Notes: generated by a model from the sequence alone, not told the origin. A stretch of 64,000 nt of DNA from Nitrosopumilus sp. (GCA_965207075.1 CBDBLO010000002.1:864001-928000); one strand, 5' to 3'. Shown: positions 2-6,032, counted from the first letter of the stretch. Numbers and translations are program-made.

Positions 2-778
2 ATATGGAGAAAGATACGCGACATGACTCCTGACAAGATTGCAAAGATTCCTACAATAAACTCCTCGCGGGCGGACACCCTGCGCGCCTCCGTACTCGTA
101 ATAATGTCGTTCCTCAAAAGCGTAAAATGCGAAAGGCTGACTGTCAGCGCGCACGGGCTGCGAGAGGGCGCGCTTGCGCTGTCAATACAGCACCCGGCCG
201 CGTTCAAGTCGCAGCACATAGACGAGCAGCACATCCGGGAGACGGTCCTCAGCGCGGTCTCCCCGTCTTCGGCCCTCGTATCGTCCAAAATCGACGCGCT
301 TGTGGAACTCCTCCTGTCTGCAAATCTTCTGCACCCGGTCGACCGGCCCGTAATCCGATACGCTCTGGAGCAGACGGACCGCCTGAGGTCGTTTAGGGAC
401 ATCTCAAACATACTGTATACCATAATGGACGACGACTCGCACCTGAGCCACGGCGACCAGCTTGCCGCCGCTCTGGCCCTGATGCACCTGAGAAAGCGCC
501 GCAAGGCGGACATAAACCTGCTCAACTTTGGCTCCATAGCCCGCTCGTACGACAAAAAACGGATACGCCGGATGTCGGCTATTGTGCTTGCGTACCAGAT
601 ACTGGAGAAGTCTTCGGCCGACATGGTTCCGGAGTTTGGCAAGGGCGGCTCCGTCACGCTTGCCGTGCGCGCGCCGTCCGGAAGCCGCTTTCCGCACCTC
701 ATGTTCAAGGAAGCGTGCTCCCAGCTGGAGGACGCGTTTGGAATCCCATTCCGTCCGGACATCCGGGTCATCGGGTGA
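2..778 (+). CDS. ppx: Ppx/GppA-family exopolyphosphatase, C-terminal part (5' truncated by window edge)
   Basis: Frame open from window start; 'SRADTL..S.LVI' and 'VSAHGLREGAL' match the conserved Ppx/GppA C-terminal ASKHA motifs; adjacent to kinase pair and CHAD gene. Confidence 0.8.
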   Translation: MWRKIRDMTPDKIAKIPTINSSRADTLRASVLVIMSFLKSVKCERLTVSAHGLREGALALSIQHPAAFKSQHIDEQHIRETVLSAVSPSSALVSSKIDALVELLLSANLLHPVDRPVIRYALEQTDRLRSFRDISNILYTIMDDDSHLSHGDQLAAALALMHLRKRRKADINLLNFGSIARSYDKKRIRRMSAIVLAYQILEKSSADMVPEFGKGGSVTLAVRAPSGSRFPHLMFKEACSQLEDAFGIPFRPDIRVIG

Positions 779-899
779 CGCACGTGCGCCCACCCTGCCG
801 CGGTGGGCCCACCCTGCCTCAGTGCGTCACTGCGGCGCGCGGGGCAACCCTGCAGATTATTTGCAAGACTTATAGTCTATTTGCGGGCAAAAACCATGC

Positions 900-1688
900 A
901 TGATGGTTGTATCCTCGCGCTCCAGCGCCGCGGACGGCGATTACGGCGCCACGGGACATGCGGGGGCCAAAAAGGCCGAAGCCGGGAGGCGCCGCCCGCG
1001 TAGGGGGGACGTCCCTGGCAAGCTTATCGTAGTCGAGGGGATAGACGGCTCTGGCAAGTCTACCCAGTTGTTGTTGCTTGAAAAGTGGCTGCGGTACAAC
1101 ATGTTTGAGGTCTTTCGCACGGAATGGAACTCTTCGGATATAGTCCGTTCCATAACATCCAAGGGCAAGAAAAAGGAAGCCCTGACACCCACCACGTTCA
1201 GCCTTCTTCACGCGACGGACTTTGCCGATCGATTTGAGCGGCACATACTGCCGCTGCTTCATGCCGGCTATTTCGTGCTGGCCGATAGGTACGTCTACAC
1301 CGCGTACGCCAGGGACGTGACCCGGGGCTGCGACCCGGCATGGGTCCGCAAGGTCTACGACTTTGCCATAAAACCCGACATTACATTCTACTTTAGGGTG
1401 CCTCTTGACACCGCGATGGACCGCATATTGTCCGGCAGACCAAAACTGAAATTTTATGAAGCCGGCGCCGATCTGAACCTCTCAAAGGACCTCTACGAGA
1501 GCTTTAGGATATTCCAACACCGCATCGTAGAGCAGTATGAGGCGATGCACAAGCGCGAGAGCTTCGTGGTTATGGATGCCACGATGCCCATACACGAACA
1601 GCAAATGATCATGCGGGCCAAGGTGCGCAAGATGCTTCCAAAGAAGCTCAAGAAGAAGACGGTTCTGGAGGTGCCCGGGCACGTCTGA
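900..1688 (+). CDS. Thymidylate-kinase-like P-loop kinase (probable catalytic subunit of heteromeric polyphosphate kinase)
   Basis: LIVVEGIDGSGKSTQ Walker A, LADRY motif; ~40 aa low-complexity N-terminal extension; polyP gene context. Confidence 0.85.
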   Translation: MMVVSSRSSAADGDYGATGHAGAKKAEAGRRRPRRGDVPGKLIVVEGIDGSGKSTQLLLLEKWLRYNMFEVFRTEWNSSDIVRSITSKGKKKEALTPTTFSLLHATDFADRFERHILPLLHAGYFVLADRYVYTAYARDVTRGCDPAWVRKVYDFAIKPDITFYFRVPLDTAMDRILSGRPKLKFYEAGADLNLSKDLYESFRIFQHRIVEQYEAMHKRESFVVMDATMPIHEQQMIMRAKVRKMLPKKLKKKTVLEVPGHV

Positions 1689-1728
1689 TGCGAGTGACTT
1701 TGCATCCATACGCGACGCGTCCGGGACG

Positions 1729-2694
1729 GTGGTAGCAGAGGCGCGCGCCGCACATGGCCGCGTCATGCATGACGATGCCGGGGAGGGCTCTGAGGATAGC
1801 GACGCGTCCGGCGATTTCGGGGCCGGCGACACCACTGAGGAGTATTCTGACAGCCACGCGTACTATGACTCTGACATATACCGCCAGCTTGCAGGAGTGG
1901 GGGATGCCGCCACGGCCGGCGTCGGCAGCCGCGGTGCCGGTACCGGTGGTGGCGCTGGCAGCAGCGGCAGCAACATGGGCGGCATGAAATCCCGCAAGCC
2001 CAGATGGTACGGAACAAAAAAGTTCGGCGGGCTGCACTATCTACGCGACATCGAGATAGCGGGGCGCCTGATCGTAATAGAGGGGCCCGACGCGTCCGGG
2101 AGAAGCACCCAGATCGAGTTGCTCACCACACAGCTGGAGGCAGAAGGGTACGCCGTGCTAAACACGGGACTCACCCGTTCGGAGATAATCGGCCAGGGCA
2201 TACTAGAGGCCAAGCGCAACATCTCGCTTGGGGTGAGGACGCTTGCAATGTTTTATGCGGCCGACTTTGCAGATCAGCTAGAGCACAAGATCATACCGGC
2301 ACTGCAGGCGGGCTACGTGGTACTGGCAGACCGGTACATCTACACGCTCATGGCGCGAAACACAGTACGCGGCATCAGGCGTAGCTGGTCAAGCAACCTG
2401 TACAGCTTTGCACTCGTGCCGGACATGACCTTTTACCTTGATGTGGACCCGTACGTGCTTGTACACCGCGTCTTTGCAAAGAGGCAGAGCTTGGACTATT
2501 ACGAGTCGGGAGCCGACATGGGCATATCAAAGAACATGTACGACTCTTTCATAAAATACCAGCAGAGGCTCGCCCGGGAGTTTGGGATCTTGGAGCAAAA
2601 GTACGACCTCAACATCGTAAACGGAAACCGCCCCACAGACGTCATAAACGCCGGGCTCAAGAAGCAGATCCTGCGGTATCTCTCAAAGGCATAA
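1729..2694 (+). CDS. Second thymidylate-kinase-like protein with degenerate P-loop (probable partner/regulatory subunit); start uncertain
   Basis: IVIEGPDASGRSTQ (K->R), LADRY motif; paralog of upstream gene; long Asp/Gly/Ser-rich N-terminus. Confidence 0.85.
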   Translation: MVAEARAAHGRVMHDDAGEGSEDSDASGDFGAGDTTEEYSDSHAYYDSDIYRQLAGVGDAATAGVGSRGAGTGGGAGSSGSNMGGMKSRKPRWYGTKKFGGLHYLRDIEIAGRLIVIEGPDASGRSTQIELLTTQLEAEGYAVLNTGLTRSEIIGQGILEAKRNISLGVRTLAMFYAADFADQLEHKIIPALQAGYVVLADRYIYTLMARNTVRGIRRSWSSNLYSFALVPDMTFYLDVDPYVLVHRVFAKRQSLDYYESGADMGISKNMYDSFIKYQQRLAREFGILEQKYDLNIVNGNRPTDVINAGLKKQILRYLSKA

Positions 2695-2718
2695 TGATAA
2701 TGGTGGTGATGGTGGCGC

Positions 2719-3870
2719 ATGGCTCACACAAGGTCCAAAACTACGCACGGGGAATATGACGATCATGGGCGGGGCGTCCCCATCGTCGCCGCCGACGCCT
2801 ACACTACCACTGCTGCCGTTGACACTGCCCCCGACACTTACGTGACCGCCTCGGCACACGGCCTCGTCCCTGACGCTGCGGGCGCGGTGACGGATATTGT
2901 GGACTCCGGAGGAAAGCCGCCTAAAAAGGGCGGGCCGCGCCCAGTCCGGGGCAACGATACTGACACTACAAGGCCGTACCACAACGCAATGCGCAGGCGC
3001 TACGATCTCTTTGCAAAGCGCCTTGAGGCATACCTGTCCAGTCCGGGCGAGGAACAGCTGCACGACCTGCGCACGTCCATACGCCGGCTCGAATCCACGT
3101 ATGGCGCACTGCCAAAGTCAGAAAGGCCCGCGCGATGCGGCAAGCTGATGTCCGCTGCAAGGGACCTGTTCCGCGGGACCGGCCCGCTGCGGGACTCTGA
3201 TGTCGTATCGGGCATGCTGATTAAGCTGGGCGTTCCGGCCGACTCGGAGGCGGTTGTAAAACTCTGCCGCGGCAGGGAGGGCGTCCTTGGGGACGCGCTA
3301 TTCCGCGCCAGGAAGATTGCGGCGCTCAAACCGCTGTCTGGAGCAGTGGACAGGATTGACCGGCACAAGATGGCGTTCAAGCGCAGGCGCATGATCTGGT
3401 CGCTCTTTGATGACGTGCGTGGCATCTCTGTAACAGTGACCTCTGACGAGTCAAAGGTTGAGGAGCTTCATGCCATGCGGAAGATGGTAAAGAGGCTCCG
3501 CTACCTGCTGGAAGACGAGACCCAGTACAGGACATATTGTCGCGTCGCTGCAGCTGCCCCTGCCGGTACGAGCGCTGCCATATCGCCTGGTAATGACGCC
3601 AGTTGCAGCGTCAATGACGCCCAAAACTATGATGCATCGCTGTCGAGGGTCTTGGACAGCGTAAGGCAGGTCCAGGAATCGACTGGCACCATACACGACT
3701 GCGACATTGCACTACAGTACGTCACTGCAAACTATGCCAGTCTTGGGGACGGCGCCGCAGGAATCTTCGATGCGATTCAAAAGCGCCGCCACAAAACCTA
3801 CCTGGATCTTGTGGGCGCGCACGATGATGACGCGCCCTCCGCGACGCGTCCCAAAACGGAACCGTCTTGA
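2719..3870 (+). CDS. CHAD-domain polyphosphate-binding protein
   Basis: EQLHDLRTSIRRL, LRDSDV, ELHAMRKMVKRLRYLLE, QESTGTIHDCD are hallmark CHAD motifs. Confidence 0.88.
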   Translation: MAHTRSKTTHGEYDDHGRGVPIVAADAYTTTAAVDTAPDTYVTASAHGLVPDAAGAVTDIVDSGGKPPKKGGPRPVRGNDTDTTRPYHNAMRRRYDLFAKRLEAYLSSPGEEQLHDLRTSIRRLESTYGALPKSERPARCGKLMSAARDLFRGTGPLRDSDVVSGMLIKLGVPADSEAVVKLCRGREGVLGDALFRARKIAALKPLSGAVDRIDRHKMAFKRRRMIWSLFDDVRGISVTVTSDESKVEELHAMRKMVKRLRYLLEDETQYRTYCRVAAAAPAGTSAAISPGNDASCSVNDAQNYDASLSRVLDSVRQVQESTGTIHDCDIALQYVTANYASLGDGAAGIFDAIQKRRHKTYLDLVGAHDDDAPSATRPKTEPS

Positions 3871-4199
3871 AGTCGATAAATGATTCGGACGTTCCGTGCC
3901 CGTGTGAAATCGTTCGGCAGGGTGGGCTCTGCATGGGATATGGACATGTTCGGGGGTGCTTGGGGGCGCTCCTGAAACGCCCGAGGGCCATGACGCGCCG
4001 TTTTGCATAGGCGAGGGCAAGGATGAAAATCTAGTCGTCGTTCGTCATGGGACTCACCAAGCGACAGCGTGAAATAATGGTGGCGCCGGTATCTGAAAAG
4101 GCAAGGTTTGTCGATCCCCCGGCGGCCGTAGTTATGGCCACACCGACATCGTGGTCGGTGCTGTTTATATCTGCACACGGGAACGGGACGAGGTGGACG

Positions 4200-4820
4200 A
4201 CACGAAAAAGAAGTTCCTGGGACTGGTTTACCTGATAATAGGGCAATATCGTTACTTTCCGGACTCTCTTCCACTGCGTAAGTATATCACTACTATGAAA
4301 ACATTCCAGTTGATCTTCTGGCGCTTCTGATCCTCTCGTATGCGCTGAGCGGAATCACATTCTTTTTTGGCATCAGATGTGTTAAATAAGGACCTGTTCC
4401 AGTTTTTCCCTGAACAAGTACGTCAAAATCTCGTTACTCGTACCCGCGGGAATAGTAGTGTATCTTGTGTTCGCCAACCTGTATGTTCATAGTATTATTC
4501 CCGAAGTATACCAAAGATACGATTCAAACGAGCACGTCCTGGCCTTTAGGGAGGCGTATAACTCCGGAAGTATGACTACGACGTTTAGCATCTTTTGGGG
4601 CGTTGATGCAATAAGCTATTCCGACACGAGGGGAATCAAGTCTGCGGAGCTTGTGATACACGTCAGTGAGGATGAACGCATGGAACTGAACTGCTATGAC
4701 GACGTGTTTAGCGAAAAACCCGTCAAGTTCCACAGCGTGGACTCCCCGTCAATCGACGACATCGCATCGTCAGTTTCCATCTGCGGTTTCAACGACATGG
4801 GCCGCCTCATCCCGCCCTGA
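4200..4820 (+). pseudogene. Probable frameshifted membrane-protein gene (lower GC); intact 3' ORF 4458..4820
   Basis: Hydrophobic segments (KKKFLGLVYLIIG; VDLLALLILSYALSGITFFFG; KISLLVPAGIVVYLVFA) lie in successive frames separated by stops/frameshifts and lead into ORF 4458..4820. Confidence 0.4.
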
Positions 4821-5204
4821 TCATATTGCAGGTACAAAACGGCACCGGCAAGGCCTGGGGACATGCGCAGCGCGTTCGGGTCCGGACTCTCGGAGGCCAG
4901 CCGCATGCGCGCGTGTCTTGACACGCAGCTGCGGGCGGTGGATGCGCCCCGCGGACGTATGCACGTCACACCCCGCCCGCCAGAACCAAAATCCGGATTG
5001 GCACGGGTTCGTACGTATTTCAGAATTTGAGAGAGGGCCGACGTGTAAGCGGAATTGCCGGATTCTTATCCTGGTGCGGTTTGGAGGCGTGCAACATATC
5101 GCGCCCCGCAATCCGCGGTTGGCCGGCCGTGCAAAAAGAGCCCGGACCGCGCCCTCCTGCCTGCATCCTGCTAGAGTTAATAGACGCGGCGTGTCCTGAC
5201 GTCC

Positions 5205-6032
5205 ATGGCGCTTGCCGAGTCGGCGGTATTTGGCATGCTGCAGGGCGTCCTTGAGTGGCTTCCGATATCAAGCACGGGCGAGCTCGTCATTATAATGACC
5301 GGGATATTCGGGTACGCGCCACAGGACGCGGCGGACCTGTCGTTTTTCCTGCACCTTGGAACGGCTGGCTCGGCCGTCCTCTACCTGCGCCGGGACATCG
5401 CACGCATACTCCGCAGCGCAGGCGGTTACCGCCCCGGATACGGCAACCCCTCCGACGGCATGATCACGTTCCTGGTAGTATCCACGCTCCTGAGCGGGGC
5501 GCTCGGGTTCTCCGTGTTTGCGCTTGCAACGGATGCGGGCGCCGCGTCCGGCGAGTTCCTGCTCGGACTGGTCGGGATCGCGCTGATAGCGACGGGGATA
5601 ATCCTGTATGCCACCAAGAGGCGGCAGGGCCCTGCCGCGTATGCCGCCGGCCTAAAGTCCGCCGAGTCGCTCAACTTGCGCGACACCGTGCTTCTTGGGG
5701 TGGCCCAGGCGTTCTCCGCCCTGCCCGGGCTGTCCCGGTCCGGCGTCACGGTCTCCGCGCTTCTCCTGCGCGGATACTCTGCGCCCGAGGCCCTGCGCCT
5801 CTCCTTTTTGATGGGCATCCCCGCCGTGCTGACGGCCCAGGCGGGGCTACTGCTCGTGTACGGCCTCCCGGATGCCGAGCCCGCCGAACTGCTGGTGGGG
5901 CTTGCGCTCTCGTTCGCGTTCGGGTACCTGTCCATGCGCGTACTTGTGGGCATAGCGGGCAGGGTCAGCTTTTGGTGGTTTGCAATCATAATGGGCTGCG
6001 TCGCGCTGCTCTCGTTTGCGGGCCTGTTCTGA
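5205..6032 (+). CDS. uppP: Undecaprenyl/polyprenyl-diphosphate phosphatase (BacA/UppP family)
   Basis: QGVLEWLPISSTG, LHLGT, AQAFSALPGLSRSGVT, LSFLMGIP motifs; multi-TM. Confidence 0.92.
   Translation: MALAESAVFGMLQGVLEWLPISSTGELVIIMTGIFGYAPQDAADLSFFLHLGTAGSAVLYLRRDIARILRSAGGYRPGYGNPSDGMITFLVVSTLLSGALGFSVFALATDAGAASGEFLLGLVGIALIATGIILYATKRRQGPAAYAAGLKSAESLNLRDTVLLGVAQAFSALPGLSRSGVTVSALLLRGYSAPEALRLSFLMGIPAVLTAQAGLLLVYGLPDAEPAELLVGLALSFAFGYLSMRVLVGIAGRVSFWWFAIIMGCVALLSFAGLF

Follow-up and report, generated by a model that had tools for sequence, protein, structure and literature searches.

The closest described counterpart of the locus analysed here is SaPPK3 of Sulfolobus acidocaldarius, a heteromeric 'family 3' polyphosphate kinase (PPK) made of two dTMP-kinase-like subunits, catalytic cPPK3 (Saci_2019) and regulatory rPPK3 (Saci_2020), hereafter c and r, whose operon also contains sixA, ppx and a CHAD gene (saci_2017-2021; PMC12995831, Hofmann et al., JBC 2026); a system of this kind in Sulfolobales had been named in the first-pass annotation of our sequence, and it does exist. 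In that paper, PPK activity is assigned to Saci_2019 and dTMP kinase activity to Saci_0893, Saci_2020 alone is described as inactive, and SaPPK3 is described as strongly favouring the formation of ATP from polyphosphate (polyP). Conserved basic residues of cPPK3 are reported to line a positively charged cleft, and replacement of the DRX Arg is given as the reason for the inactivity of rPPK3s. The paper also states that most PPK3 genomes lack PPK1 and PPK2, and it already reports PPK3 in ammonia-oxidising Nitrososphaerota.

Two further systems invite comparison. STK_15430 of Sulfurisphaera tokodaii, which was deposited under the name 'probable thymidylate kinase' (PDB 2plr, 4nzy, 4rzx and 5h70), consists of one c-type subunit, in contrast to the c + r pair of our locus. 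Two-domain class II PPK2 (for example PA3455 of P. aeruginosa) resembles the pair in joining an active P-loop kinase module to one that is inactive and serves oligomerisation and activation (PMC12995831). However, it belongs to another family, of which Pfam detects no member in the genome studied here, and its two modules sit on one fused chain instead of being encoded by two genes, although natural fusions of the PPK3 type also exist (P0077, P0093 and P0122), which fits physical cooperation of the c and r proteins.

Our window, a 64,000-nucleotide stretch of a Nitrosopumilus sp. genome (GCA_965207075.1, CBDBLO010000002.1:864001-928000), opens with four ORFs, all on the plus strand (Table 1). 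With a probability of about 0.85, we read this locus as a PPK3 operon encoding a SixA-like phosphatase, an exopolyphosphatase, cPPK3, rPPK3 and a CHAD protein, with function assigned by homology with SaPPK3. The order sixA-ppx-c-r-CHAD is common to both organisms (PMC12995831), as are a separate canonical dTMP kinase, the lack of PPK1 and PPK2, and conserved c motifs together with the basic residues specific to c. The differences are the host, which here is a mesophilic ammonia oxidiser, low-complexity extensions on the window's c, r and CHAD proteins, and the r motifs discussed below.

Table 1. Coordinates of the PPK3-like locus and of the solo tmk copies of the same genome
Feature	Position	Strand	Basis or remark
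ppx, 3' part (exopolyphosphatase, Ppx/GppA family)	2..778	+	ORF open at window 5' end
Hairpin + T-run; TTATAG	839-863; 870-875	+	between ppx and c; sequence reading
cPPK3 orthologue (predicted catalytic subunit), 262 aa	900..1688	+	ORF, Walker A GIDGSGKST, DRY motif, c-specific invariant basic residues, tree
rPPK3 orthologue (predicted regulatory subunit), 321 aa (start GTG 1729) or 239 aa (start ATG 1975)	1729..2694	+	GPDASGRST, ADRYIY, tree
CHAD-domain protein, 383 aa	2719..3870	+	Pfam CHAD
SixA-like histidine phosphatase (His_Phos_1)	L006:6153-6854		upstream of window; Pfam 9.7e-12
ppx, full gene	L006:7024-8778		start ~G000:C2:863024 if TTG used
Solo tmk copies outside the operon	C2:79371-79910; C1:39784-40323; C2:1255488-1256051		PF02223

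The initial reading of two co-oriented kinase-like paralogues between ppx and a CHAD gene is borne out by ORF calls and Pfam: both middle ORFs match Thymidylate_kin (5.4e-23 for the first and 1e-21 for the second), and their products align over 216 residues with 35% identity (E 1e-50). Equally, the P-loop of the first is intact and that of the second degenerate, as had been stated. The ppx assignment needed amending: the gene is present, but the window edge truncates it, and the remainder lies upstream together with a fifth gene, the SixA-like one. The part inside the window matches the tail of Ppx-GppA only (5.2e-4, below the Pfam cut-off); the full gene matches PF02541 at 3.1e-45 (155.2 bits versus a gathering score of 27), and ppx of relatives, 466-531 aa long, occupies the same position. 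CHAD (PF05235) is matched at 3.4e-16 (60.3 bits versus a cut-off of 25.6) by residues 90-265 of the last ORF. Since the CHAD relatives detected measure only 250-273 aa, the window protein carries an N-terminal low-complexity extension. The gap between ppx and c may hold an internal terminator (terminator-like site at L006:8839-8853, that is, window 839-853) followed by an archaeal TATA box about 25 nt upstream of the ATG at 900, and the five genes may thus perhaps be carried on more than one transcript.

How far this arrangement is conserved was assessed in a locus map made by phmmer, which covers 20 related loci: nine from the window's family (f1), two from f3 and nine from Sulfolobaceae (f21). 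A co-oriented run sixA-ppx-c-r is found in 14 of the 20 (5/9 f1, 1/2 f3 and 8/9 f21), and one further f21 locus has the same run with a shortened ppx ORF. In two f1 loci sixA-ppx is divergent from c-r, and three related loci have c-r without adjacent ppx. A CHAD gene follows r in five of the nine other f1 loci mapped (L008-L011 and L013), is found close by but on the other strand in two more (L012 and L014) and was not detected in the map of L007 and L026. Among 80 loci of named archaea and bacteria, 78 have c and r adjacent, frequently beside ppx and sixA.

We placed the paired genes in a tree of 70 archaeal proteins from one phylum only, comprising 42 tandem-pair proteins and 28 solo Tmks. 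All 42 tandem-pair proteins form one clade (support 100/100) apart from the solo Tmks. Within it, the window c is nested in a first-gene clade (97/91, 21 rows) that includes the Sulfolobaceae first genes, and the window r in a second-gene clade (95/93, 21 rows), which makes each of the two the orthologue of the corresponding Sulfolobaceae gene. Some solo Tmk rows of this tree have long branches. The first gene of L021, a Sulfolobaceae locus, matches PDB 2plr_A over 213 of 213 residues (467 bits), and the first-gene clade is therefore anchored to a solved cPPK3 homologue. The same S. tokodaii structure (2plr/5h70) is matched by the window c at E 1.1e-63 over residues 40-244, compared with E 1.8e-15 for the best canonical Tmk in the PDB, and by the window r at E 1e-33; it is the closest solved structure for both proteins. 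Sequence identity to Sulfolobaceae is 49-50% for c (two sequences in alignment A1) and 26-36% for r. No heteromer structure was present among the PDB sequence matches to c, r and the L021 first gene. A predicted complex of c residues 36-262 (alignment A1) with r residues 84-321 (alignment A2) scored 0.72, but one control reached 0.56, and we give this prediction no weight for or against a heteromer.

The genome itself, which is 95.4% complete and carries archaeal amoA, has no match to PPK2 (PF03976) or PPK1 (PF02503) at E <= 0.01. PF02223 matches five proteins, three of which lie outside the operon (Table 1) and fall in the family's solo-Tmk clade as canonical-type copies. The proposal made from the sequence, that the pair are catalytic and regulatory PPK subunits, called for a phylogeny and a search for a separate canonical tmk; with c and r in their respective clades, canonical-type tmk copies elsewhere in the genome and no PPK1 or PPK2 match, it is well supported, the roles of the two proteins being assigned from sequence. 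The PPK3 identification is right but already in print, because PMC12995831 reports PPK3 in ammonia-oxidising Nitrososphaerota. Among the matches listed, 'PPK3' did not turn up in the ammonia-oxidiser literature, and earlier reports on Nitrosopumilaceae may exist.

By homology with SaPPK3, c would catalyse reversible phosphate transfer between ATP/ADP and polyP; its nucleotide site would be that of a Tmk, with a basic cleft where Tmks have the dTMP site. The r protein would be non-catalytic, bind c (as in the alpha2beta2 complex of Sulfolobus) and raise its activity, while Ppx would degrade polyP and the CHAD protein would bind it. Because no PPK1 or PPK2 was found, both the making of polyP and the recovery of ATP from it would, as far as known enzymes go, depend on the c-r pair alone in this organism. 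For the window locus we infer the activity of c, its preferred direction, the heteromer and co-transcription; since SaPPK3, in the published account, strongly favours ATP formation (PMC12995831), net polyP synthesis in a mesophile would be an extrapolation.

The regulatory subunit of the window locus departs from that of Sulfolobus. The start of r is uncertain: with GTG 1729 as the start, r gains some 80 acidic low-complexity residues for which 11 relatives have no counterpart, and the 239-aa product of the ATG 1975 start compares with 236-266 aa in relatives. The published rPPK3 feature, replacement of the DRX Arg, is absent from the window r, which retains this Arg (ADRYIY) and has Arg in place of the Walker-A Lys. 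In the numbering of the window c, which we use for all residues, R130 (DRX) is kept and the Walker-A Lys position is Arg in 12/12 r proteins of f1 and f3, in contrast to the Sulfolobaceae r proteins, which have Gly for the DRX Arg in 9/9; the r of one Sulfolobaceae locus, L019, keeps the Walker-A Lys. The two-gene loci of named genomes combine DRX Arg with Walker-A Arg in r in 78/78 cases (motif states of the 80 loci were read from hmmalign alignment columns), and r-classed representative segments have both in 53/62, with DRX Arg in 61/62 and Walker Lys in 0/62. Replacement of the DRX Arg thus seems to be a feature of Sulfolobaceae and not of PPK3 as a whole. Because the DRX Arg is kept, the case for a regulatory and inactive r comes down to the Walker-A Lys-to-Arg change and to the fact that roughly half of the basic residues specific to c are lost: the twelve f1 and f3 r proteins keep K90, R91, R138 and R142, and their commonest residues at four other positions are Asn 92, Gln 111, Asp 166 and Asp 184 (K92N, R111Q, R166D and K184D relative to c).

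In other P-loop NTPases, Walker-A Lys-to-Arg changes usually leave nucleotide binding intact and stop transfer. The locus could then encode a PPK3 pair whose r is not an inert scaffold but a nucleotide-binding sensor of energy charge, perhaps with some transfer activity left; the retained DRX Arg, the segment YYESGAD, which resembles the c lid, and the largely intact core speak for this, as does the recurrence of the same two motif states in f1, f3, the named two-gene loci and most of the representative segments. The four lost basic residues argue against polyP binding by r, Saci_2020 alone is inactive (PMC12995831), and on balance we consider residual function of this kind rather unlikely. 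A related suggestion, which we advance only tentatively, is that the Sulfolobus r is perhaps atypical and that r of ammonia-oxidising archaea and bacteria may bind nucleotide without transferring phosphate, and act as a sensor through which the ATP/ADP ratio determines whether PPK3 makes polyP or regenerates ATP, rather than as a dead oligomerisation scaffold.

We counted alignment columns in 20 c proteins, including that of the window, and 28 solo Tmks. K53 (P-loop) and R130 are kept in 20/20 c proteins, which also agree without exception (20/20) at K90, K91, K92, R111, R138, R142 and K184, basic residues that solo Tmks lack. Canonical Tmk (PF02223, TIGR00041) has the same fold family, P-loop, DRY motif and a lid arginine in common with the window proteins, but canonical Tmks form a separate clade and lack both these extra invariant basic residues and a segment at about 184-189, which is present in the PPK3 clade and missing from 28/28 solo Tmks. 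Position 108 is Arg in 25/28 and Lys in 2/28 solo Tmks, and Phe in 20/20 c and 12/12 ammonia-oxidiser r proteins; we take the Arg at this position of Tmk to be a dTMP contact. With Phe at 108 and a place outside the solo clade, neither window protein has the marks of a canonical Tmk. A second-substrate site remodelled in this way might also suit a substrate other than polyP, in which case the pair might be an NMP/NDP kinase independent of polyP, or a kinase for a small phosphorylated compound on which the SixA-like phosphatase acts, and only one family member has been assayed so far (PMC12995831); however, the 49-50% identity of c to Sulfolobaceae c, its conserved basic residues and the ppx and CHAD neighbours all point to polyP, and we regard this alternative as improbable.

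Both window proteins just exceed the cut-off of the dTMP kinase equivalog NCBIfam TIGR00041 (c 90.6 and r 85.4 bits versus 83.25), and every named relative is labelled dTMP kinase, in good agreement with the early warning that annotation pipelines would mislabel the genes tmk. That the two are nevertheless ordinary redundant dTMP kinases, adjacent to ppx and CHAD by coincidence, is favoured by these scores and the Thymidylate_kin matches but is hardly credible given the fully supported clade apart from the solo Tmks, Phe for Arg at 108, the canonical-type copies elsewhere in the genome, the recurring c-r adjacency in named loci, often by ppx and sixA, and the published division of labour between Saci_0893 and Saci_2019 (PMC12995831).

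The distribution of the PPK3 pair is patchy: it occurs in 69/300 other genomes of the window's family and 2/37 other genomes of its genus, and it is also found across many bacterial phyla. A search for related loci confirmed 551 of them. Data S1 of PMC12995831 gives PPK3 = 0 for most cultured Nitrosopumilaceae strains; we considered that it simply misses this family but do not uphold this in general, because the pair is present in so few other genomes of the genus that the zeros of many cultured strains are credible.

Earlier studies report ppx in 2/23 thaumarchaeal genomes (PMC7848895) and find polyP genes to be missing from N. maritimus SCM1 (PMC11082331); for ammonia-oxidising archaea of marine and symbiotic habits, ppx or phosphorus-rich granules are on record, but no known kinase. 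For lineages with this operon, PPK3 would be the missing kinase, its activity being assigned by homology. Since relatives carry 'dTMP kinase' labels and both proteins score above the cut-off of the equivalog model, KEGG- or COG-based surveys will go on overlooking the capacity for polyP. The r motif difference marks where the published mechanism needs testing beyond Sulfolobus. Finally, the patchy spread of the pair (69/300 genomes of the family) would make it a marker for ammonia oxidisers able to buffer phosphate or energy with polyP.

The window lies at C2:864001-928000 of its genome (G000). Adding 8 kb of upstream DNA (L006, the operon with that DNA) brought in the full ppx gene and a SixA-like gene, so the unit reads sixA-ppx-kinase 1-kinase 2-CHAD. 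The first-pass annotation had described two kinase-like paralogues between ppx and a CHAD gene, all co-oriented, with an intact P-loop in the first and a degenerate one in the second; the ORFs and Pfam matches bear this out, and the P-loops read GIDGSGKST and GPDASGRST, respectively. The two proteins are 35% identical (E = 1e-50). A putative hairpin with a T-run and a TTATAG box, located between ppx and kinase 1, may split the unit into two transcripts.

Features of the window operon and related loci (window positions unless prefixed)
Feature	Position	Strand	Match
His_Phos_1/SixA-like gene, 5' of ppx	L006:6153-6854		9.7e-12
Full ppx	L006:7024-8778		Ppx-GppA 3.1e-45
ppx tail	2-778, open at window edge	+	Ppx-GppA, tail only
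Putative hairpin with T-run	839-863
TTATAG box	870-875
Kinase 1 (c), 262 aa	900-1688	+	Thymidylate_kin 5.4e-23
N-terminal low-complexity extension of c	900-1010
Kinase 2 (r), 321 aa	1729-2694	+	Thymidylate_kin 1e-21
N-terminal low-complexity extension of r	1729-1974
CHAD gene, 383 aa	2719-3870	+	CHAD 3.4e-16
N-terminal low-complexity extension of CHAD	2719-2990
Orphan ORF, 120 aa	4458-4820		no Pfam match
uppP/bacA	5205-6032
Tmk-type gene L001	C2:79371-79910
Tmk-type gene L002	C1:39784-40323
Tmk-type gene L003	C2:1255488-1256051
Locus L026, window's genus	G259:C1:2107800-2118300
c gene of L026	L026:5306-5989	-
Upstream fragment like c residues 25-77	G259:C1:2115130-2115288

The putative N-terminal extensions, which may be translated or a product of start-codon choice, are missing from relatives, in which c measures 224-246 aa, r 236-266 aa and CHAD 250-273 aa; the long r form recurs in the representative protein P0121 (322 aa, 89% identical to window r). 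Downstream of CHAD, the stretch 3871-5204 holds the orphan as its sole ORF, and its G+C content is 0.474 at 4001-4500 versus 0.54-0.67 around. Three relatives have sufB immediately 3' of r, so the window carries CHAD, the stretch 3871-5204 and uppP in addition.

The 'family 3' heteromeric polyphosphate kinase (PPK3) that the annotation had named is real. Saci_2019 (cPPK3, catalytic) and Saci_2020 (rPPK3, regulatory) of Sulfolobus acidocaldarius, annotated as thymidylate kinases, are reported to form a reversible alpha2beta2 polyphosphate kinase (SaPPK3) that prefers ADP + polyP -> ATP; their operon also holds sixA, ppx and a CHAD gene, and the true dTMP kinase is a third gene, Saci_0893 (Hofmann et al., J Biol Chem 2026, PMC12995831; preprint 2024, bioRxiv 10.1101/2024.08.28.610084). 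Data S1 of that paper gives PPK3 = 0 for most cultured Nitrosopumilaceae and Cenarchaeum and PPK3 = 1 for one 'Nitrosopumilus sp.' and Nitrosotalea okcheonensis, and Nitrosopumil* is absent from the main text. Since PPK3 is already in print, with ammonia-oxidising Nitrososphaerota included, the window operon is a further member and not a new system. The observation of the window pair is confirmed, and its interpretation as the catalytic and regulatory PPK3 subunits is supported.

Kinase 1 matches the S. tokodaii cPPK3 homologue (PDB 2plr/5h70) at 1.1e-63, compared with 1.8e-15 for the best canonical Tmk; for kinase 2, the match to that chain is at 1e-33. Across 401 genomes of the phylum scanned with the kinase-2 domain, adjacent pairs occur only in the window's own family (12 of 56 others, plus the window genome), a further ammonia-oxidiser family (2/2) and a Sulfolobaceae-like family (14/15); the remaining genomes with matches have single, weaker ones. 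Gene order, mapped by phmmer in 20 fetched pair loci, is co-oriented sixA-ppx-c-r in 14, and again in one further locus whose ppx ORF is shortened; sixA-ppx is divergent from c-r in two loci of the window's family, and three loci have c-r without an adjacent ppx. In a 70-protein tree (IQ-TREE, LG+C20) confined to archaeal sequences of one phylum, with some solo branches long, the 42 pair proteins form one clade (100/100) against 28 solo Tmks. This clade divides into 'first' (97/91) and 'second' (95/93) clades of 21 rows each, with the window genes nested within their own family. The first gene of L021, a Sulfolobaceae-like locus, matches 2plr_A over its full length (467 bits), a direct link between the 'first' clade and the cPPK3 homologue of the literature.

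The window genome (95.4% complete) encodes archaeal amoA (1.1e-116) and gave no match to PPK1 or PPK2. The phylogeny and the search for a separate canonical tmk that the first-pass annotation had proposed both favour its reading: the window kinases fall outside the solo Tmks, in the c and r clades, and three Tmk-type genes outside the operon (L001-L003) all lie within the family's solo-Tmk clade. A PF02223 search of five genomes likewise found a solo Tmk plus the pair in every one. L001 and L002 share 97.9% DNA identity over 2097 bp; since L002 sits on the 46-kb contig C1, either a segmental duplication or a contig from a variant strain may account for the two copies. Their products end in a ~60-residue tail rich in Lys, Arg, Ala and Pro. 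The third copy, L003, has diverged strongly (end branch 1.93). The predicted mislabelling as tmk is also seen: NCBIfam TIGR00041, a dTMP-kinase equivalog (cut-off 83.25 bits), passes both c (90.6) and r (85.4), so every named relative is called 'dTMP kinase'.

Residues at three positions (window-c numbering; the broken c gene of L026 is excluded from c counts)
Position	c	r, both ammonia-oxidiser families	r, Sulfolobaceae-like family	Solo Tmk
53, Walker-A Lys	Lys 20/20	Arg 12/12	Arg 7, Lys 2 (n=9)	Lys 24/28
130, DRX Arg	Arg 20/20	Arg 12/12	Gly 9/9	Arg 28/28
108	Phe 20/20	Phe 12/12	Leu 9/9	Arg 25, Lys 2 (n=28)

Basic residues K90, K91, K92, R111, R138, R142 and K184 are invariant in c and missing from solo Tmks, and the segment ~184-189 is missing from all 28 solo Tmks. 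Ammonia-oxidiser r proteins keep K90, R91, R138 and R142 and have lost basic residues at 92, 111, 166 and 184. These residues agree with the published account of unconserved dTMP-site residues and a basic cleft conserved in c and not in r; they disagree with it on the DRX arginine, which by that account 'is replaced in rPPK3s' but here is so only in the Sulfolobaceae-like family (PMC12995831). Among the 150 best 50%-identity representatives matched by the r domain, 62 r-classed segments spanned both columns; none kept the Walker Lys and 61 kept the DRX Arg, with Arg (53), Cys (6), His (1) or Pro (1) at the Walker position, the last segment having Arg with DRX Gly. Exactly two kinase ORFs are present in 78 of the best 80 of at least 551 loci from species-representative genomes, and all 78 pair one Lys/Arg/K184 protein with one Arg/Arg/(D, S or N)184 protein, in the order c-r in 76 and r-c in 2; the two that remain span only 5919 and 4831 bases and show one kinase ORF each. 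Judging by these motifs, the explanation of r inactivity in the accessible part of the published account does not fit window r or most of the PPK3 family. The sole obvious catalytic lesion of window r is the Walker-A Lys->Arg exchange. In other P-loop proteins this exchange usually spares nucleotide binding.

Of 300 further genomes in the window's family, 69 have a strong c match (E <= 7.3e-55), a count that includes three flagged unpublished (G092, G077, G228), and among the matches listed nearly all positives have an r-type match beside c. By genus, positives number 2/37 in the window's own (g1), 3/5 (g2), 3/7 (g4), 7/11 (g6), 2/2 (g7), 27/37 (g11), 1/5 (g14), 3/3 (g16), 3/31 (g17), 9/10 (g18), 6/37 (g20) and 3/19 (g22); the other 15 genera have none in this sample, where missing does not equal absent from the lineage. 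Inside the pair clades, the window groups with both g1 positives (100/98). This grouping, together with the position of sufB in the three relatives, means that inheritance with frequent loss fits better than recent gain. In L026, the c gene is without the P-loop N-terminus, and a fragment resembling that part of c lies ~1.3 kb upstream; c seems interrupted there and r intact.

The c-r loci confirmed in species-representative genomes number at least 551. Archaea among the best 80 include Nitrosopumilaceae, Nitrosotalea, Nitrososphaeraceae, Nitrosocosmicus and one Ca. Methanoliparum; these 80 also include MAGs titled as Acidobacteriota groups (Terriglobia, Bryobacterales, others), Verrucomicrobiota, Nitrospirota, Planctomycetia, Armatimonadota, Chloroflexota, Binatia, Desulfuromonadales and Brocadiia, and most bacterial matches among them share 57-64% identity with window c. 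In the named loci (L063-L142), ppx and sixA frequently lie near c-r, in varying order. The c-r pairs are widespread among uncultured bacteria, far beyond 'a few bacteria'.

Gene content, gene order, orthology and motif states are established. By analogy with SaPPK3, c would move phosphate between ATP/ADP and polyP, r would bind and activate c, and polyP would be hydrolysed by Ppx and bound by CHAD. Natural c-r fusions exist (P0077, 444 aa; P0093, 440 aa; P0122, 460 aa) with the c-type module N-terminal (Walker GK) and the r-type C-terminal (GR in P0077), which lends indirect support to physical cooperation of c and r. One or two such modules also occur inside larger architectures (P0131, P0150 and P0152, 650-696 aa; P0225, 1030 aa; P0245, 1237 aa). 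What is new here is how far and how patchily the operon spreads in the window's family, a bacterial spread much wider than published, and the misfit between window r, with most of the PPK3 family, and the cause of r inactivity given in the published text as accessible.
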